This document shows, one piece after another, positions 13,817 through 27,170 of a stretch of 64,000 bases of DNA; position 1 is the first letter of the stretch, and each line of letters starts with the position of its first letter. This DNA is from Rhizodiscina lignyota (Eukaryota), in assembly GCA_010015805.1 (NCBI GenBank), contig ML978122.1:1026453-1090452 (forward strand), given 5' to 3'. A program made the position numbers and the translations under genes. Under the pieces are notes generated by a model. That model saw only the letters and a list, made by a program, of their open reading frames with translations. It did not search any database and was not told where the DNA came from.

Positions 13817-15200
13817 ATGAATGGTTTTGCGGACCATGGCCTAAGCGAGGCCGATTTTGGGCAAAAGGGCATCTCCGTTGTATGTTGCTAAATGACGCCT
13901 CTTGGAGAACATAATTACTGACAACTGCTTTAGGCTTCTTTCGACGCCTTCCGTATGTATATTTCGTCTTCGCAAAGAGTCCCTACTTCTTCAATTGTGG
14001 ATATGGGATCGGCCAAACATTGTGCTGACATCCCCTCCAGCAAAGACAAAGCCGACCTATCTCACGAAATCGCGAAGCGGCGGAGCATGGACACTACTAC
14101 TTCTGGTAACAAGTGTATCACTTCTCATATCTGAGACTGGACGATGGTGGGCGGGGACGACACATCACAGCTTCAGCGTCGAGAAGGGCGTATCGCACAC
14201 CCTTCAGATGAACCTCGATGTCGTAGTCACAATGCAATGCAGCGACCTGCACATCAACGTACAAGATGCTGCGGGCGATCGCTTGCTAGCGTCGGAGGTG
14301 CTGAAGAAGGACCCGACGACATGGGAGACGTGGCATCAGAAGAAGGACGTGCACAAGCTGTCAGGCGCCGCGGGGGACGATATGCGCTTTGGAAAGGGTA
14401 ACGAGGAGGATGTACACGACTATCTGAGCGCGACAAGGGGGAGGAAGAGGTTTGCAAAAACACCGAGAATAAAGAGGCACCAGCAGGCGGATGCTTGTAG
14501 GATATACGGGAGCCTGGAAGGGAACAAGGTCCAGGGAGACTTTCACATCACGGCGCGAGGACATGGGTATATGGAGTTTGGAGAGCATCTGGCGCACGAC
14601 AGTAAGTGCTGCCAACTTAATCTAATCCACGTGCAACATTGAACAGAAGGCTAACGAGACATTGCAGCTTTCAACTTTACCCATCAAATCAACGAACTTT
14701 CCTTCGGCCCCTACTACCCATCGCTCACGAACCCGCTCGACAACACAATCGCCTACACCGCCTCACACTTCTACAAGTTCCAATACTATCTCTCCATCGT
14801 GCCGACCATCTACACCGAGGACCCAGGCTTCGTCCGCAACCCCGACCACATCCCCTCCGACCCTCCATCCCTCTCCAACGCACTCTCCCGCAATCCTAAG
14901 ACCATCTGGACGAACCAGTACGCCGTGACGGAGCAGAGCCATTTGGTTGGCGAGGTGAACGTCCCGGGCATCTTTGTCAAATATGACATCGAGCCGATAC
15001 TGCTGCTCGTAAGCGAGGAGATGGGCAGCGGGATTGCGCTCTTGATCAGGTTGGTGAACGTCATTGCGGGTGTCCTGGTTGCGGGTGGTTGGTGCTATCA
15101 GCTCAGCGAATGGGCGACAGACGTGTGGGGAAGAAGAAGCGCGAGGAAGAGGGCGAGTTTGGGCATGTTGCATGGTGGAGATGATAAAGACGATGAGTAG
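13817..15200 (+). CDS. ERV41: ER-derived vesicle protein Erv41
   Basis: Spliced MNGFADHGL...VASFDAFPKTKPTY (introns 13880-13933, 13953-14040, 14602-14667). Motifs CRIYGSLEGNKVQGDFHITARGHGY, FQYYLSIVPT and PGIFVKYDIEPI; two TM helices. Confidence 0.92.
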
Positions 15201-15681: not shown

Positions 15682-15808
15682 TGAACATGGCGTAATGAAA
15701 TTACCTACTCTATCCTTGCCCTGATCTTCATTTCTGTCCGAATATTTTCTCAATGCATGCCCGCTTTTTTTTGGGGCAGTTTTCAATCCTCTTCCTTCCT
15801 TATCCAGA

Positions 15809-16522
15809 ATGTTCTCAAAGACGATATCGGTTCTTGTACGTGCCCTCCAAGCCTTGTGGGCTATTTGTGTGCTTGCACTCTCGTGCAATATAATCGCGAA
15901 ATCTTTTTGGAATGAAGTCCCAAGGGAGGCAGGGAATGCTGCCGAAGTTAATTACTGCGTGTTCGTCGGAATCTTTACCATGCTGTCGTGGTTTTTCCTC
16001 TTCTATGAAGCCTTCGCCGATCTACGAGGCCGGTACGACGACATGAAGCTGGTCACACTGGCTATCGACGCCTTGAACACTATATTCTTCTTCTGTGGAG
16101 CTGTGGCTTTGAGCGCCGCTCTTGGAGTGCACAGCTGCGAGAATAGTGAATATACCGATAACAATCCGATCACAAAAACCTCCGACGACACCAACACTCG
16201 GTGTCGCGAGGCTCAGGCTACGACTGCCTTCCTTTGGCTCGGCTTCCTCACGTTTGCTTTTACGACGGCGATGTCAGCGCTCTACTGGCTTGACCCTGAA
16301 CTTGTTCTGCATCGCGAGCACCGACCCGATCCGGAATCTCAAGGCGCTCCACCGATGGCTGCTTCAGAGCCTCGTTTCGACCGCCGTCGTAATAGTACCG
16401 GGACAGATGATGACATTTCAGGAGCACCAGAGACCGTCGGCGATGACGAAAGTCTACCCAGGCTGCATAAGAAGTCGAAGGACATGATCACTGGCACGCA
16501 AGGCGGATGGATTGCAGGATGA
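15809..16522 (+). CDS. MARVEL-domain tetraspan membrane protein, NCE102-like, with acidic C-terminal extension
   Basis: Four hydrophobic segments and NCE102-type motifs VNYxVFVxxF, DALNxIFFF.GAVAL, GVHSC.N..Y and RCREAQATTAFLW. Intronless. Confidence 0.85.
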   Translation: MFSKTISVLVRALQALWAICVLALSCNIIAKSFWNEVPREAGNAAEVNYCVFVGIFTMLSWFFLFYEAFADLRGRYDDMKLVTLAIDALNTIFFFCGAVALSAALGVHSCENSEYTDNNPITKTSDDTNTRCREAQATTAFLWLGFLTFAFTTAMSALYWLDPELVLHREHRPDPESQGAPPMAASEPRFDRRRNSTGTDDDISGAPETVGDDESLPRLHKKSKDMITGTQGGWIAG

Positions 16523-16638: not shown

Positions 16639-18025
16639 CTACAGCGCAGTCATGCTTAAGCTTTTGTTTTCATCGTCCCCGAAGACAGGTAGATGTATCG
16701 GAAATCCCAACAAAGTCATTGTTCCGACCGGTAATGCAACTTTCAAGCTCGACAGCAGAATCTTCACAAGTTTCTTGCTTTGTAGCTTGTTGCGCTGCTT
16801 CTTCGCTTCTTGAATCTTCAGTTCAACAACGATTCGCTCCTCTGGCTTGATTTTGCTCTCGTTCGCCCTCATAATTGATACGACCCAATCCAAGTCTGGT
16901 TCTTGTGTCGTTGTTGCTGCCTTTGAATTGCTGCTGCTACTGCTTAGAAGGCGTCCATGTATGATTTGTAGAGTGCCGGGTCGTGGAGTAATAGAAGGTG
17001 GCGCTGCGTCCCTTAAAGACCTGTCCGACATGCGAGTCTCGAGGCCCCTGATTCTGCTTGAAAGTTTGTTCTCCATATGTCGCCAGTCTGCGCGTCGTTC
17101 GGCCTTGAGCTGCTCCTGCTGCCGGTGGACCCTCTCCAACTCGTCTTCCATCTTACGCCGCTGCTCACTGAGGATCTCCTGCAGCTCATCATCACGATCC
17201 CTTAAAGCCTGTTCCATCTCCTTCTGTATCTTCTCGTTCTCCTTCTTGTACTTCTCTTCGAGGCGGAGGAGCTCCTCATTGACCACGCGACCCGCAGAAG
17301 TATCCACTAGTGTCTTCTGTTCTTCGACGAGTTCGCGCTGGATATTCAGCGTCACTGAGTTTTTCTTAACGAGGCTCGCGACGATCTTCAGCGCGGACGT
17401 GCGATCTGTGAATCGGTCAATTCGTGACCCTCGGCGAATCATCCTGCCCCAGAAATCCGGGTCTGTCCTCAGTTCTTTCTCACGGCTCTCCCCCATCGCC
17501 TTCTCAACGCTATCCCAGAAGGAAGTTACAAGGATAACGTTTTTTAAAGGCTCCTCGCCACAAATTTCACGGAACATTCGAAGATTTCGAATGGCAGAGC
17601 CTTCCATTCGTTCGTTGTGGATGTTATGCATGTAGATTATACCGTTTAGTCTCGTCTTGTTTTCGTACGACTCTCGGAGCCACTTTGCAATGTCCGCAAG
17701 GACATCTGCCTCGCTTCGATAAGTATCATTAAATCCAGGTGAGTCTACAAGTACGATGTTGTAACCATTATGGTGAAAGGAGTAACCTTTCAGCTCAGAG
17801 GTACCTCCAGCGCAATTAGTTTTGCCACCAGATCGGATGTTATCACTTACAGGATTTGAGCGTATGTCCGATACTGATGGTTTCATCACCGCTCGCTGTA
17901 CGAATAAAAGTACTCTTTCCAGAGCCTGTTACTCCCATGACCGCGATGAAAGCCCATGGTGCCCGTGGATCAATATCCGATGCCGGGCTCATGACGTCGT
18001 CCAATTGAAGGTTGGGATAGCTCAT
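16639..18025 (-). CDS. P-loop GTPase (AIG1/Toc34-like fungal G-domain protein) with coiled-coil and hydrophobic C-terminus
   Basis: Exon 1 has G1 IAVMGVTGSGKSTFI. Intron 17805-17850 (GTAAGT...CTAAT...GAG) joins KSCT (G2). G3 is DSPGF and G4-like is VTSFWD; an E/K/R/Q-rich coiled coil follows. Confidence 0.9.
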
Positions 18026-18536: not shown

Positions 18537-20772
18537 TTACCCCATCCAAACGACTGCCTTCTTCCAAACCCTGCGTTTAGAAAAGTCTCGTCCTTCAGCG
18601 TCCCCCACGGCCACCACCGCCGGATGAACAACGAGCTGCACCTCCGCCCCGTCCAAACAATGCTCGTCTTCGCTGAGCTGCAGATTGTGCAACGCATGAT
18701 GCTGCAGAAATTCAGAATTGTATGAAAACCGTAGTGCGCTACCTTTCCTTGGCAAATCCTTCAGCTGGTGGCTGGTAACATGCTGTCTCTGAGTAGATAG
18801 CTTGAAGGCGAGTTCCGCAGCTCGCGTCATGAGCTCTACGAGGTCCACAAAGAACCTCTCCTCTACCTCTTTCTCAGGTACCAAGAATATACGTGCATCG
18901 CTAGAAAGGAACTGGCGCGCAAAGGCTACTGCCGCCGTGGAACGCGCGTTCTTGATGTTGCTCTTCATTTTACGGAGCCTAGATGATGCAACGTTGGGAG
19001 CAGATATTGGGTCCAAAGAGCGAACTGTCTGCACTCGCCACGCGTTGGCTGCTTCGTAGTCAACTGTGATTACCATCAGCTAAGGTCATTCAATATCAAA
19101 TTACACATCGCCTTTCATACTTTCGAGCATATCAATGTAGATATCGTAGAACGAAATCGCTGACTCTGACGGGAGCTCTTCGGATTCCGCTTGAGAGATG
19201 GTGTGTGTTGCGAAGAAAAAGGGATTATCGAATATATTTGTGTAGATTGCATTGCTTAGTGAGGCAAGCAGCAGGATTGATGGCCCCTTGGTACCGAGCT
19301 TCGCAGTTGCAAGTGTCGACGATTGGCCGTTATTAGATCCCGAGACTGGTTCAAGTACCCTCTCCAAGCTCTTCTGCTCATCCGAAGATAGCGCCAGTGA
19401 ATCAATCGCCTCAGTTTTCGCGTATCCCTTGCTCCAAGAGAGCATGCTTTGCCAAATATTGTCTAGTTTCCGTTGGATATCTGCATCTGCTTCCGGCATC
19501 CATTCTGGGTCTTCAGGAAACTGTAAGCTTGGCTCCTGTACCTCGTTTGCGGCTTGGATATCGATTGCAATATTCGGCCGGAGAGCAGCACCCTCAACTG
19601 CAGATTCTAGACGATAGACTTCTTCTTTGTGTTCCTGGAGTTGCTCCTTAAGGATCTGGATCATTTTCCGCGCGTCCCCGAGGTCACGCTCAAGGCCTTT
19701 AGCTTCTTCCTTCTTGCGCACCAGGTCTGAACTCAGCCTCTGTTCGTTTTTCTGGCTTGAAGACAGCTGCCCAGAAACTTTCTCGACCCGCACTTTCTGT
19801 ATTTTCACCTCACTTTGTACAAGATGAAGGTCTTTGACCTGCTGTTCTAGTGCATGGATCTTATCCTTCGAAGATCGCCCCTTCTTGTCATATTTGTCGT
19901 ACTCGCCTTTCCAATGTTGCGCACGCCTCTGATAGAAATCTCGGTCGATTCGCATTTTCCTCAGCTCTTCGTTCAGCCGGCTGATTTCTCCTTTGGATGT
20001 CTGAGTGTCAGTTTTCCACTCAAAAGCTGTGCCGCGAGCCCGTCCCAATTCGGTCGAGAGATGCTGAATTTGATCAGTTTGCCGCCGCCATTCGTCTTGG
20101 AGGCCATTGACAGTGCCCGCCAGCATCCCGTTCTCATCGTCGCGAGCTCCAGCCTGATGCTCTAGCGTTTTAACCTGATATGAAAGTTGTTCCACAAGTT
20201 GGAAGTGAGCGTGAGCAGCGGCTACCGTTGCAGGATCGACGCTCAACTTTTGGTTGTTGATCGAGTGGTTGGGAGTGGATATTTCCATTCCGGTTGCCGC
20301 GCTGTCTGCCGCAGCAAGTTCACTGCTCGAAGCTTGTTGGTTGACCCATGACCCCTGTGGCGGTTGCGTGTCAGTCCGTGCCTGATAATCTATCGATGTC
20401 TGTTGCGGAAGCTGAGATATCATCCCTGGCAGTTGGGCACCTCTGTTAGTGGACTTGCGAACAAGATACATCCTCTGACTGGACTTTTTGGAGGTGTCGG
20501 GTGCGGGTGGCTTCTGAATATCAGCACTTGAAGAGCAAGGGAGCTAGATTAAATTACACGCAAAGAATAGTCGCCAGTCTCGTTTGTCGGGAACTTCACA
20601 CGGTTCAGTCAATGACAATAGCAATGATGTTCGAAAGCTGATGGGCTCTTACCACATGTCGACGTTGCATGTCCTCCCTATCTTCCTCTACGTGCGCGTT
20701 GACGGACTGGCTTTGGCCTCGTTGCTCGGTGAGCGACTTGAAGCCCCCTTTGATTTTGTCGAATGTAGACAT
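18537..20772 (-). CDS. Long coiled-coil protein with conserved-looking C-terminal domain (..VQLVVHPAVVAVG....RRVWKKAVVWMG*), putative GrpE-like Hsp70 cofactor
   Basis: ATG at 20772 (MSTFDKIKGGFK), donor at 20652, probable 36-nt mini-exon, main exon KPPAPDTSKKSSQRMYLV... Intron 19064-19120 joins ORF 19101-20471 to ORF 18537-19076 in frame (MLE-I-DYEAANAWR). The function is inferred. Confidence 0.8.
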
Positions 20773-21367: not shown

Positions 21368-23393
21368 ATGAATGGGACGCGGTCGTCGTCGCATTTCTCC
21401 TTCCGGGGCGGAATGGCTGCTGCAGGAGCGTACAAACTGATTGTTGGTGTTGATTTTGGTACAACGTACACAGGTCAGTTGAGTTTCGATAAAGTGCCTC
21501 TAGCAATCTCTGTTAACGATTAAAACCTAGGCGTGAGCTTTGTGCTTTCAACAAGAGCTCCAAAGGATGTATATGTCATCCGGTCATGGTCCGGCGCCAG
21601 CAGGCCGTCGGACAATGCCTGGAAAACCCCATCTCGTATTGCCTATGCCGAAGAGAACCCCAATCACGACAAAGATCAGATTGGGTTTGACGTTACTCCG
21701 GGAATGACGAGTTACTCGTGGTTCAAGCTTCTGCTTGACCGGGCCGCTGAGCGTAGATTCGATGATCCGGATCTAAGGGATATAGAAGGTCCAGGCATGT
21801 TACGACTGCCACGGAATAAGACTGCCCAACAAGTGTGCGCCGACTTCCTACGGGGTATATACCAGAAGACTTTTGAGGAACTGAACACGCGAATGCTGGC
21901 CAGCGTGGTTAACGCGATGCCTATTGATTTTTCATTCACTGTCCCGGCGATATGGTCCGACAAGGCGAAAGCAGACACCATCGCATCCGCAAGAGCGGCT
22001 GGCTTTGGTTCGCGACCTGGAGACACAATTACTCTCATAACAGAGCCCGAGGCAGCGGCAATATCAGTAATGAAGTACCTTGCAGATGATGGAAACGACC
22101 AACTACAGGTAAGAAGGATCACTCATGTGACATAGGTTCAAGGCTAATCCCTCGAAAGAAAGGAGATTCCATACTCATCGTCGACTGCGGCGGCGGGACT
22201 ATAGATCTCACGGGTTATGATATCGAACGTGTTGTTCCGGAGCTCGAATTCAGCGAACTGCTTGTTGGAGAGGGCGGAAAGTGTGGAAGCACACACATCG
22301 ATCGACGATTCCATCAGTGGATGTCAGATACGTTTGGAGCAGCCTTCGATTCCGTTCCGTTTCCGAAAAAGGGCCCAGGCAGCAAATTCATGAGAGAATT
22401 CGAATCGATCAAGGTAAACTTTGGCTCCGAAACCGTAGACCAAACATATGAGATACCATTGTTGCTCCGTGGGGTCCAGTCGTGCCCGAATTACGACATG
22501 GAGGAGACAATGGTTAAGTTTTCCAAGTTAGTACAAGCCCCAATTTTTCTATGAGCTGAGAAGCTTACATATAGTGCAGACGGGATCTGCAAGAGTTTTT
22601 TGAGCCAGTGGTCCAAAACGTCATTGGTTTAATTGAGCAGCAGGTAGCCCAGGCCAACATCGAGAAAGGCAAATCAATAAATAAGATTATCCTGGTAGGC
22701 GGGTTTGGTGACTCCCGATATCTTCTCGACGCAGTCAGAGAATGGGGACGACTCAATGGGAATTTTGAAATCATCTGCCCTGTATATCCGTTAGTATCTC
22801 GGATCCTTCTTTCATATTTCTTACTAAGGTATACTAGGCAAGCCGCAATCGTCATTGGCGCTAGCATACGAGGTCTTGGTGGGCCTGGAAGTCAGCCAAG
22901 ATCGCGCAAATGCCGCCGTCATTATGGATTCCAGCTCGATTTGCCATACGATGAGATAAACGATGACAAGCGGCATATGTACCACAACGAATACGACCGC
23001 AAAAGGTACACTAGAGGAACCATGGTGTGGAAGATACCTATGGGGTGTGAAATTGATGAGAATACCCTTATAAAACAACATATCAAGAAGCCATGGTTCA
23101 AAGGAGAGTCTTTACAATTCACACTCGGGTTGTACTCCAGCAGTCTTGACCCGCCACCAAAGCGAGAGGAACATCCACGTGTCCATAAAGTTGGAACGAT
23201 TAAAGTAGACCTCACGGACAAAGACTTGAAGCGGTTCAAGAGGAAATGGAAAGTCACGCAAGACCGTTGGGTCTGGCAGCTGGAATATGAGATACAGATC
23301 TTGTTCGGCCAAAGAGAAGGAACACTCTGCTTCCGCGCTAAATGTGGTGACAACTTCATTGGAAGTACTCAAATCGAGTATGCTCGTGAATAA
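21368..23393 (+). CDS. Non-canonical Hsp70 (HSPA12-like actin-fold ATPase)
   Basis: Motifs IVGVDFGTTYTG, TVPAIWSD, EPEAAA, VDCGGGTID, GKCGSTHID and LVGGFGDSRYL. Introns 21474-21530, 22109-22158, 22527-22579 and 22790-22837. No helical lid or EEVD. Start is 21368 or 21413. Confidence 0.92.
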
Positions 23394-23839: not shown

Positions 23840-24279
23840 CTACCCTTGCCTACGACCAAGTCAGTCTTCGCATGAGAAATCCAACCGTAGGGACCTTACC
23901 TCTGTTTGTGCTTTGGATTCTTGCTACATATAATGTACACATACTTCTTCTTCCTTCGAACACTCTGAGACAGGGTTAGCTGTTTTCTCTCATGCAGTGG
24001 TTCGAGTGCTCTAACCTTGCAGCCATCACATAATTTCTTCACTGATGTTCGCACCTTCATTCCCCTGGCTTGCGTAGCTGTATTGCTGGTCGAAGCAAGA
24101 GCATTATTCGATCGGATCGTCGGTCTGGCGAGGGATGAGAGGAGGCTACTAGCTGAAGTTCGAGAGGTGAAAGTCCTTGAAAGCGAGCGCTGAGAATAGC
24201 GGACTGCGGTGAATGTCGCGGTTTGAAGGGAGGAGAAGATGGTCTGCCGCGCTCGCAGCAAAAGCGGTCTGCCGAGCAT
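23840..24279 (-). CDS. RTC6: Mitochondrial ribosomal protein bL36m (L36)
   Basis: Arg/Ser-rich presequence, then GMKVRTSVKKLCDGCK / SVRRKKKYVYIICSKNPKHKQR / QG*. Two introns; stop TAG at 23840-23842. Confidence 0.93.
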
Positions 24280-24526
24280 CGTGAAAGATGAGAAGATAAT
24301 GTATAAGGTAAATCCTCCGCTGGTGATAGGGTCTTAGCCTTAATTGAAGATTGCTGAAGGATCTGCGACTGCGGAGGACTGGGAGTCCGTCTTGATGTTG
24401 AACCTCCGAGTTTGATATGCGGCCGGTTAATCTTCGGACCGCATCTCCGAATAATTTTCTGGACAGGAGCTCTTCGAAAGGTCGGACAAGACGAAACGCA
24501 AAGGTTTCTACAGCAATTGCACGAAG

Positions 24527-27170
24527 ATGAGGGTGAATGGCGTTGTCAGGTCACAGGCAACTGCCTTACGATCGCTCCAACATGGGCTCAATTCACGTCA
24601 AACTTGGACGCGACATGTCTGTCTCGGGGCGCCGCATCGCTGTGTCTCGACAGCAGTTCTGCGGCCGGTGAACGTCGTATCGAGAGACCAGCGGATTCAA
24701 TGGCAGAGCAGAAGACACCAGGCCGGCGCGGCTGCTGCTATGTATGAAGCTCCGACCATGATGGCGTTCAAGGAGAAGACAAAGCTAATTGTGGCAGGCT
24801 CGAGCAAGCACAAGCCGAACCGGGCGAGCTGGCGCAACAGACAATTATAGAGAACCTCAACCCTGAAGAGGCAAAAAGACTGTCGATGGTTCGAAATATT
24901 GGCATTGCTGTGAGATATTACCCTCCAATGATTGGACTCGTGCGTTGCGCAAGCTGGAACTTCGCATTCACGTAAAGTCAATTATACACGGTACTCATAC
25001 TGATTGGCGAATGTTATATAGGCGCATATCGACAGCGGTAAAACTACAGCGACGGAACGTGTCCTCTTCTATACGGGTCGAATCCACTCTATCCACGAAG
25101 TTAGGGGCAAAGATTCGGTAGGCGCAAAGATGGACAGCATGGACCTGGAGCGCGAGAAGGGTATCACTATTCAGTCCGCCGCAACATTCTGTGACTGGGT
25201 AAAGAAAAATGACTCAGGAGAGGAGGAGAAATACCACATCAATCTCATCGACACACCCGGACATATCGATTTCACCATAGAGGTCGAAAGAGCTTTAAGA
25301 GTGTTGGACGGTGCGGTCATGATATTATGTGCCGTTTCAGGAGTTCAAAGTCAAACTATTACCGTTGACAGACAGATGAGACGTTACAATGTTCCAAGAC
25401 TCAGCTTCATTAACAAGATGGACCGTATGGGCGCAAATCCCTTCAAGGCGGTGGATCAGATCAATCACAAGCTCAGGTTACCAGCGGCGGCGATACAAGT
25501 TCCAATTGGGGCCGAGGATAACTTCAAAGGCGTTGTTGATCTCATCAGGATGAAGGCGATCTACAACGAGGGCGCCAAAGGAGAGACGATTCGAGAGACG
25601 GACGAAATTCCTGCAGATGTCCTACCTGTAGCACAAGAGCGGCGAGCTAAGCTCATTGAGACACTCGCGGATGTAGACGAGGAAATTGCGGAGCTTTTCC
25701 TGGACGAGCAGACACCCACGCCAGACCAGATTAAAGCTGCTATCCGAAGAGCCACGATTTCCCTGAAGTTCACCCCCGTTATGATGGGTTCAGCGTTAGC
25801 TGATAAATCCATCCAGCCTATGTTGGATGCAGTCTGCGATTACCTTCCAAACCCGGCGGAAGTGGAAAATCTAGCTCTTGATCGTCGGCGTCAGGAAGCA
25901 TCTGTAAAGCTTGTCCCATACAATTCACTACCTTTCGTTGGATTGGCTTTCAAATTGGAAGAGAGCAATTTTGGACAGTTAACCTATATCCGAGTCTATC
26001 AAGGTAGCTTAAAGAGAGCAGCCGTCCTGTATAACGCACGCACAGACAAGAAGGTCAAGATTCCACGTATTGTGCGCATGCACAGTAATGAGATGGAAGA
26101 TGTACAAGAAGTGGGTGCTGGTGAGATTTGCGCCGTCTTTGGTGTGGATTGTGCCAGTGGAGACACGTTCACTGATGGACAGCTGGGTTACAGCATGGTA
26201 AGTATATTCTTCTTTTGTCTTCTGGATGGTTTAACAAGCCGATAATAACAAATCTCCACAGACTTCAATGTTCGTGCCTGATCCAGTCATCTCTCTGTCC
26301 ATTGCCCCAAAGCACTCGAAGGACGGCTCCAACTTCTCAAAAGCCATTGCCCGCTTCCAACGCGAAGATCCTACATTCCGCGTCCATTTCGATGGCGAAT
26401 CTCAGGAAACTATTATCTCTGGTATGGGTGAACTCCATCTCGAAGTCTACGTCGAACGTATGCGACGAGAGTACAATGTCGACTGCATCACTGGGCAGCC
26501 GCAAGTCGCGTGGCGAGAAACTGTCACAGAGAGCGTCAACTTCGATCACCTACTGAAGAAGCAGACTGGTGGTGCTGGTGACTATGCTCGCGTCATGGGA
26601 TGGCTAGAACCAACTGGCTCGCTTGGAGAGAACAAGTTTGAGACTCAGGTCACGAGCGGCGCCATCAGTGAGAAGTTCCTGTCTGCTTGCGAGAAAGGTT
26701 TCTACCAGAGCTGCGAGAAGGGCCCATTGCTGGGCCACAAAGTCTTAGGCGTCAACATGGTGGTCAACGACGGTGCGATTCATATGACCGATTCATCCGA
26801 CCACGCCTTCAATACTGCGACACAGCAAGCCTTCCGTAAAGCTTTTGCGCAGGCAAATCCGCAAGTTTTGGAGCCGATTATGAAGACCACAATTACCGCG
26901 CCGACCGAATTCCAGGGTAACGTCGTCGGGTTGCTGAACAAGCGCAATGCCACGATCAACGATACGGATACTAGCGCAGAGGATTTTACAGTCTATGCGG
27001 ATTGCTCGCTGAACAGTATGTTTGGCTTCAGCACACAGTTGAGGGCAGCGACACAGGGGAAAGGCGAATTTGGAATGGAATTTGCTCACTACAGTGCAAC
27101 GACGCCGCAGTTGCAGAGAGAGTTGGTGGCGAAGTATGCTAAGGCACAGCAGGAGAAGAGCAAGAAATGA
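24527..27170 (+). CDS. MEF1: Mitochondrial elongation factor G1
   Basis: Presequence, then [39 protein letters not shown] and GMGELHL. Introns 24742-24797, 24910-25021 and 26198-26261. Confidence 0.96.

Follow-up and report, generated by a model that had tools for sequence, protein, structure and literature searches.

The locus described here raises the question of whether a fungal coiled-coil protein can end in a GrpE-like head and act as the nucleotide exchange factor of an Hsp70 encoded beside it. It lies in a 64,000-nucleotide stretch of intron-containing ascomycete DNA from Rhizodiscina lignyota (the window; G000:C2:1026453-1090452, where G000 is the genome carrying it), in which an earlier note had proposed such a cofactor role for a coiled-coil protein whose C-terminus it placed at 18537-19076, within an open reading frame (ORF) at 18537-19079 on the minus strand. 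Our analysis indicates that the protein to which this ORF belongs, P0001, is probably a dedicated helper of an atypical Hsp70 branch; it is GrpE-like by prediction, yet it fails PF01025 both on score and on key residues. The reading we favour, with about even confidence, is that the flagged exon encodes the GrpE-type C-terminal module of a cytosolic fungal partner or exchange factor for the neighbouring atypical Hsp70.

The flagged ORF, which ends in ...FSYNSEFLQHHALHNLQLSEDEHCLDGAEVQLVVHPAVVAVGDAEGRDFSKRRVWKKAVVWMG*, is the terminal exon of the P0001 gene and not a free-standing gene, because a canonical 57-nt intron (19120..19064, minus strand; donor GTATGA, branch CTGAT, acceptor CACAG) links it, with the reading frame kept, to a 480-codon frame upstream. 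The database protein P0001 (690 residues) is 100% identical to the flagged exon, and its annotated junction is the predicted intron junction; an intron at roughly the same place was found in the P0001 paralogue and in 10 metagenome loci. The ORF contains the C-terminal motif quoted earlier, in which the spacers had been shortened (14 residues separate QHH from DGAEV), but its proposed start was wrong: the ATG at 19076 falls inside the intron. All parts of the gene lie on the minus strand. The first exon with the start codon (ATG 20772) occupies 20653..20772, and the last exon (residues 516/517-690 plus the stop) occupies 18537..19063, as supported by the ORF, the splice signals and the identity to P0001.

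The proposed architecture was borne out, with a long coiled coil (residues ~155-360; 19587..20204; coiled-coil Pfam matches below cut-off only) leading to a helical domain (395-604) and then to a terminal beta head in the predicted model. The first half of the helical domain (395-515; 19121..19484) is defined by conservation and the model, and the helix before the head (580-606; 18792..18872) would correspond, by sequence alignment, to the second short helix of GrpE. The GrpE-like beta head itself (~610-690; 18540..18782) is placed by predicted model md1d4147c67af, VIA structure matches and alignment. The head-to-head arrangement with the Hsp70 gene also held, the two start codons (ATG 20772, minus; ATG 21413, plus) being separated by 640 bp.

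A dedicated link between P0001 and the Hsp70 is strongly supported because the gene pairing is conserved, and this pairing is the strongest evidence we have for it. The nearest P0001 paralogue in G000 (38% identity) likewise has an atypical Hsp70 as its divergently transcribed neighbour, and this Hsp70 is in turn the paralogue closest to P0151 (50%), the Hsp70 of the window. Four of the eight atypical Hsp70 loci in G000 have a statistically supported divergent partner (the window, L003, L016 and L017; leave-one-out E values of 1e-10 and 2e-8 for the L016 and L017 partners), two have a like-built partner by eye (L015, E 0.08; L018, by eye alone), and two have none within about 30 kb. A search of about 30 kb around each of the L007 and L008 Hsp70s found no partner. 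The Hsp70s of L015 and L018 are mutually closer, each head-to-head with a very divergent gene for a coiled coil and a beta head (L015:6090-7057, plus; L018:3929-5205, minus) that falls below the family profiles, and these partners may form a separate subfamily. The atypical G000 Hsp70s at L013:6017-7084 (plus) and L014:3583-4653 (minus) have no detectable partner in about 30 kb, and the close relative of L013 in L101 (75% identity) does have one.

The pairing extended beyond this genome in a metagenome scan covering the best 80 of 345 Hsp70 matches, of which 23 have upstream sequence of 2.9 kb or more (not counting L115, which carries two Hsp70 pieces); some of the contigs possibly come from related organisms, and the counts are not independent events. 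A divergent family gene (E<1e-27) accompanied all 11 Hsp70s at least 36% identical to P0151. Six of the 12 more distant Hsp70s had a partner passing leave-one-out at E<0.01, two had a top-ranked but non-significant one and four had none; reversed-ORF controls gave zero matches. The pairing holds for Hsp70s just 27-33% identical to P0151, with barely alignable partners. In Trichoglossum hirsutum, the locus tags of the best homologue and of an Hsp70 homologue are adjacent. The 29 bacterial loci with Hsp70 matches of 22-34% identity included two with canonical GrpE and none with a member of the fungal family.

P0151 (590 residues; 21413..23393, plus strand) is transcribed away from the P0001 gene, and it is termed HSPA12-like, its homologues being annotated as 'heat shock 70 kDa protein 12A/12B'. 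Its ATPase motifs are intact: among 80 aligned homologues, the catalytic and phosphate positions are conserved as D14 (78/78), K86 (80/80), E194 (80/80), D222 (77) and T227 (78). Likeness to solved Hsp70s is confined to the nucleotide-binding domain (NBD; best match DnaK 1dkg_D, 2e-19) and stops near profile position 430 of 596, with no recognisable canonical substrate-binding domain beyond. HSPA12A/B-type Hsp70s likewise combine an Hsp70 NBD with an altered C-terminal part; a 2026 review (PMC13580251) gives their function as unknown, and the text consulted describes no GrpE-like cofactor for them, unlike P0151 with its candidate partner. Across the subdomain IIB hairpin, 71 of the 77 rows have a span of 42-46 residues, versus 36 in DnaK as counted from the alignment. 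According to PMC10825016, Hsp70s that work with GrpE have retained a long hairpin, which docks on the GrpE helices. The long hairpin would be compatible with a GrpE-like contact, which it fits but does not show.

The likeness of the head to GrpE was supported by two structure routes, one based on our own monomer model and the other on an Atlas model, although the Z and template-modelling (TM) values are modest. VIA matched our own predicted model to GrpE heads over model positions 32-112, where about 50 head residues superpose with a root-mean-square deviation of 2.8-3.8; the short match list is headed by human GrpEL1 and consists mainly of GrpE chains, which come from four organisms. The ESM Atlas predicted model likewise supports the likeness. 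Foldseek found nothing at E<=1e-3 with either of our two monomer models. Based on these predictions, the tail of P0001 is likely to adopt a GrpE-related fold. As in GrpE, Mge1 and GrpEL1 (PF01025; PDB 1DKG, 3A6M, 4ANI, 9BLS), a coiled coil is followed by short helices and a C-terminal beta head, the terminal R-V-x-K-x-A-x-V parallels R-[LV]-[LI]-R-P-A-x-V, and the gene stands beside an Hsp70. P0001 differs in its length (690 against ~190 residues), in a linker and a helical insertion of ~165 residues separating its GrpE-like helices, both absent from GrpE, in two insertions in the head (an HxxHxxxL helix and a GxxxGxDY loop), in the replacement of the FDPxxH and KGY motifs, and in having as its partner an atypical Hsp70 rather than DnaK or mtHsp70.

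By sequence, the likeness of the P0001 family to canonical GrpE appears at best marginal, and several results weigh against the reading we favour. PF01025 gave no score for the exon or for P0001, Mge1 being its sole match in G000, and it matched none of 14 partner exons and all three true GrpEs. No signal was obtained when profiles A1, A2 and that of the L128 subfamily were compared by HHalign with a profile of 90 GrpEs (built without three loci from unpublished genomes); a narrow family profile reached a probability of 0.25, within the range of 30 shuffles, and PDB sequence searches with the exon and profiles A1 and A2 returned no GrpE, one of them being swamped by coiled-coil noise. The glycine present in 89 of the 90 GrpEs aligns, in this remote alignment, to D589, a column with E41, D22, K17 and S15 among 142 sequences, and the basic long-helix motif N-x-R-[KR]-R is not kept in the P0001 subfamily. 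This column probably corresponds to G122 of Escherichia coli GrpE, where G122D abolishes exchange, as stated in the accessible text of PMC10825016.

Some signal nevertheless emerged from broader comparisons. At P<0.05, a hidden Markov model (HMM) of the GrpE head matched 43 of the 144 family heads, whereas its matches among controls were three of the 144 reversed heads and 61 of the 720 shuffled ones, a faint and non-independent excess. Three divergent partners gave P values between 3e-4 and 1.4e-3 when scored with either this HMM or one of full-length GrpE. A broad profile of 41 hand-assembled sequences (the divergent partners L015, L018, L098 and L100 left out) could be aligned with 54 columns of the GrpE head at E 5e-4, probability 30 and a score of 25.8 versus at most 18.7 in 40 shuffles. 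The motif parallel with the GrpE C-terminus proposed earlier is thus real in register but weak.

We consider it likely that P0001 physically partners its neighbour Hsp70, and that it has exchange-factor activity is, by analogy with GrpE, an evenly balanced proposition: gene pairing supports a dedicated link, but exchange is deduced from that analogy and key GrpE residues are lost. In the DnaK-GrpE complex, as described in PMC10825016 and PMC10803776, GrpE opens the cleft by inserting its head between subdomains IB and IIB while its helices hold the IIB hairpin. By the same geometry, the beta head of P0001 would wedge between IB and IIB of the P0151 NBD, and its helical domain would engage the long IIB hairpin, so that the cleft opens and ADP is released. 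The ~165 inserted residues may take the place of the four-helix bundle or lengthen it, the coiled coil may dimerise or tether the pair, and the AIG1-like GTPase encoded next door could be an optional third component. In this model, we infer the P0001-Hsp70 contact, the oligomeric state and the cellular location.

Somewhat improbable, yet the main rival, is that the head binds the neighbour Hsp70 as an adaptor, scaffold or client without catalysing exchange, either holding the ATPase open or inactive or recruiting it to a coiled-coil assembly or a membrane GTPase. This would accommodate the lost glycine and basic motif, the large helical insertion, the missing canonical substrate-binding domain of the Hsp70, the closer structural resemblance to MIEAP and GIL1/IRKI_C and the G-domain fusion in a Basidiomycota cluster. 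However, the Hsp70 retains every tested catalytic residue and the long hairpin, and other subfamilies, the L128 one among them, keep glycine or alanine at the D589 column (74 G + 45 A of 121). Convergence of a small beta fold on GrpE, the pair being kept by a bidirectional promoter or joint duplication, is unlikely, since GrpE chains of four organisms dominate the structural match list, the motifs are collinear across the entire head, and the pairing persists at Hsp70 identities of just 27-33%. Human GrpEL1 as best structural match could suggest that P0001 is a mitochondrial protein, diverged from Mge1 by duplication and acting on mtHsp70, but this is very improbable given a true Mge1 gene on another contig (G000:C5:2144887, E 5e-41), the linkage to an atypical Hsp70, and an acidic N-terminus (7 acidic and 7 basic among the first 40 residues); the distinction from Mge1 drawn in the earlier note is supported.

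The C-terminal domain of P0001 is more than a chance likeness, because it recurs in 438 clusters with key residues kept in at least 90% of sequences. These clusters were matched by P0001 395-690 at E<=1e-3 (185 at 1e-10) among 1.84 billion representatives searched with phmmer, the domain being almost always C-terminal; nine of 10 looked-up matches bear names, all ascomycete hypothetical proteins. In an alignment of 144 rows from the 150 matches listed, G654, P663, G669 and A685 are kept in at least 90%, and the conserved core comprises W411, PFF482-484, WR524-525, L590, F628, HxxH638-641, LDG652-654, P663, G669, G673, R680 and K684-A685-x-V687-W688. The flagged exon has no Pfam match. A word-indexed search with it recovered only P0001 among 2117 candidates, the search being insensitive here, and the partner exons of L128 and L101, used as queries against G000, retrieved no match.

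A second well conserved subfamily of L128 type (235 matches) aligns to the P0001 family with a probability of 97% and E 1.6e-11. It is a highly conserved Sordariomycete subfamily (L128:9612-10085, minus), frequently annotated 'involucrin repeat protein'; in L128 the gene lies ~7 kb downstream of the Hsp70 and not head-to-head, and several L128-type gene models are fused to an AKAP7 2'5' RNA ligase-like domain, perhaps by annotation read-through. A further partner subfamily (L098:1573-2280, minus; L100:664-1329, minus) is extended at the C-terminus and has a longer insertion in the head.

Directly downstream of the P0001 gene lies the third cluster member, an AIG1/MMR_HSR1-type P-loop GTPase with a coiled coil and a hydrophobic tail (16639..18025, minus strand), found in seven of the 23 metagenome loci, in five of them in the order of the window, and matched once in G000 with a single query. 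Its C-terminal stretch is moderately hydrophobic (maximum KD19 1.58) and is possibly a tail anchor. A Basidiomycota cluster in the ESM Atlas (631 residues, MMR_HSR1 on 73% of members) combines the P0001-type domain with a G domain and is possibly a fusion of the two genes that neighbour each other in the window. A MARVEL-domain (NCE102-like) gene (15725-16522, plus; Pfam E 2e-20) converges on the GTPase gene. The cluster does not obviously sit in a mobile element, as the flanks at 14000-15200, 23896-24333 and 25022-27170 look like ordinary housekeeping genes, presumably Erv41-like, mitochondrial L36-like and mitochondrial EF-G.

The nearest named families, by language-model features and by predicted structure alike, were the plant GIL1/IRKI C-terminal domain (PF24994, DUF641 proteins) and MIEAP (PF16026), which also join a coiled coil to a terminal domain; the similarity of 0.78-0.82 is below 0.9 and a lead only, and the predicted-structure TM values of 0.60 and 0.59, respectively, are under the Atlas bar for family naming. 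Neither family matched the query at E<=0.5, nor was either among the 25 listed of 240 families for the 144 members. A likeness to the bacterial GAP1-N2 GTPase-centric conflict systems is suggested by the recurring GTPase, the basidiomycete G-domain fusion and the large number of divergent sets within a genome. In the accessible part of PMC7159879, these systems also bring GTPase, Hsp70 and GrpE genes together in several paralogous sets per genome, and ~14% of one class carry HSP70 and GrpE; they are bacterial, with double GTPases, GAP1 and FNIII proteins, and no fungal version is mentioned there. By analogy, a defence role of the fungal sets would be a guess. Our literature search, from which subscription journals were largely outside coverage, found no description of the P0001 family or the gene pair.

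To our knowledge, exchange factors of the GrpE type occur only in bacteria, archaea and organelles, and unrelated factors serve the eukaryotic cytosol; a GrpE-fold partner beside HSPA12-like Hsp70s would, if true, break this rule. Taken as a whole, a wider picture is tentative and rather doubtful: filamentous fungi may hold expanded, fast-diversifying cytosolic sets, each pairing an HSPA12-like Hsp70 with its own GrpE-derived exchange factor and sometimes an AIG1/GIMAP-like GTPase, as a possible eukaryotic counterpart of the bacterial conflict systems, and the GIL1/IRKI and MIEAP domains may be the same module and thereby the cofactors so far missing for HSPA12-type Hsp70s throughout the eukaryotes. 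A GrpE-fold partner beside HSPA12-like Hsp70s would also point to what would be the first biochemical role of the MIEAP and GIL1/IRKI C-terminal domains and would offer a direct assay for the HSPA12-like branch, whose function PMC13580251 gives as unknown, and the cognate paralogous pairs within one genome permit a test of specificity.
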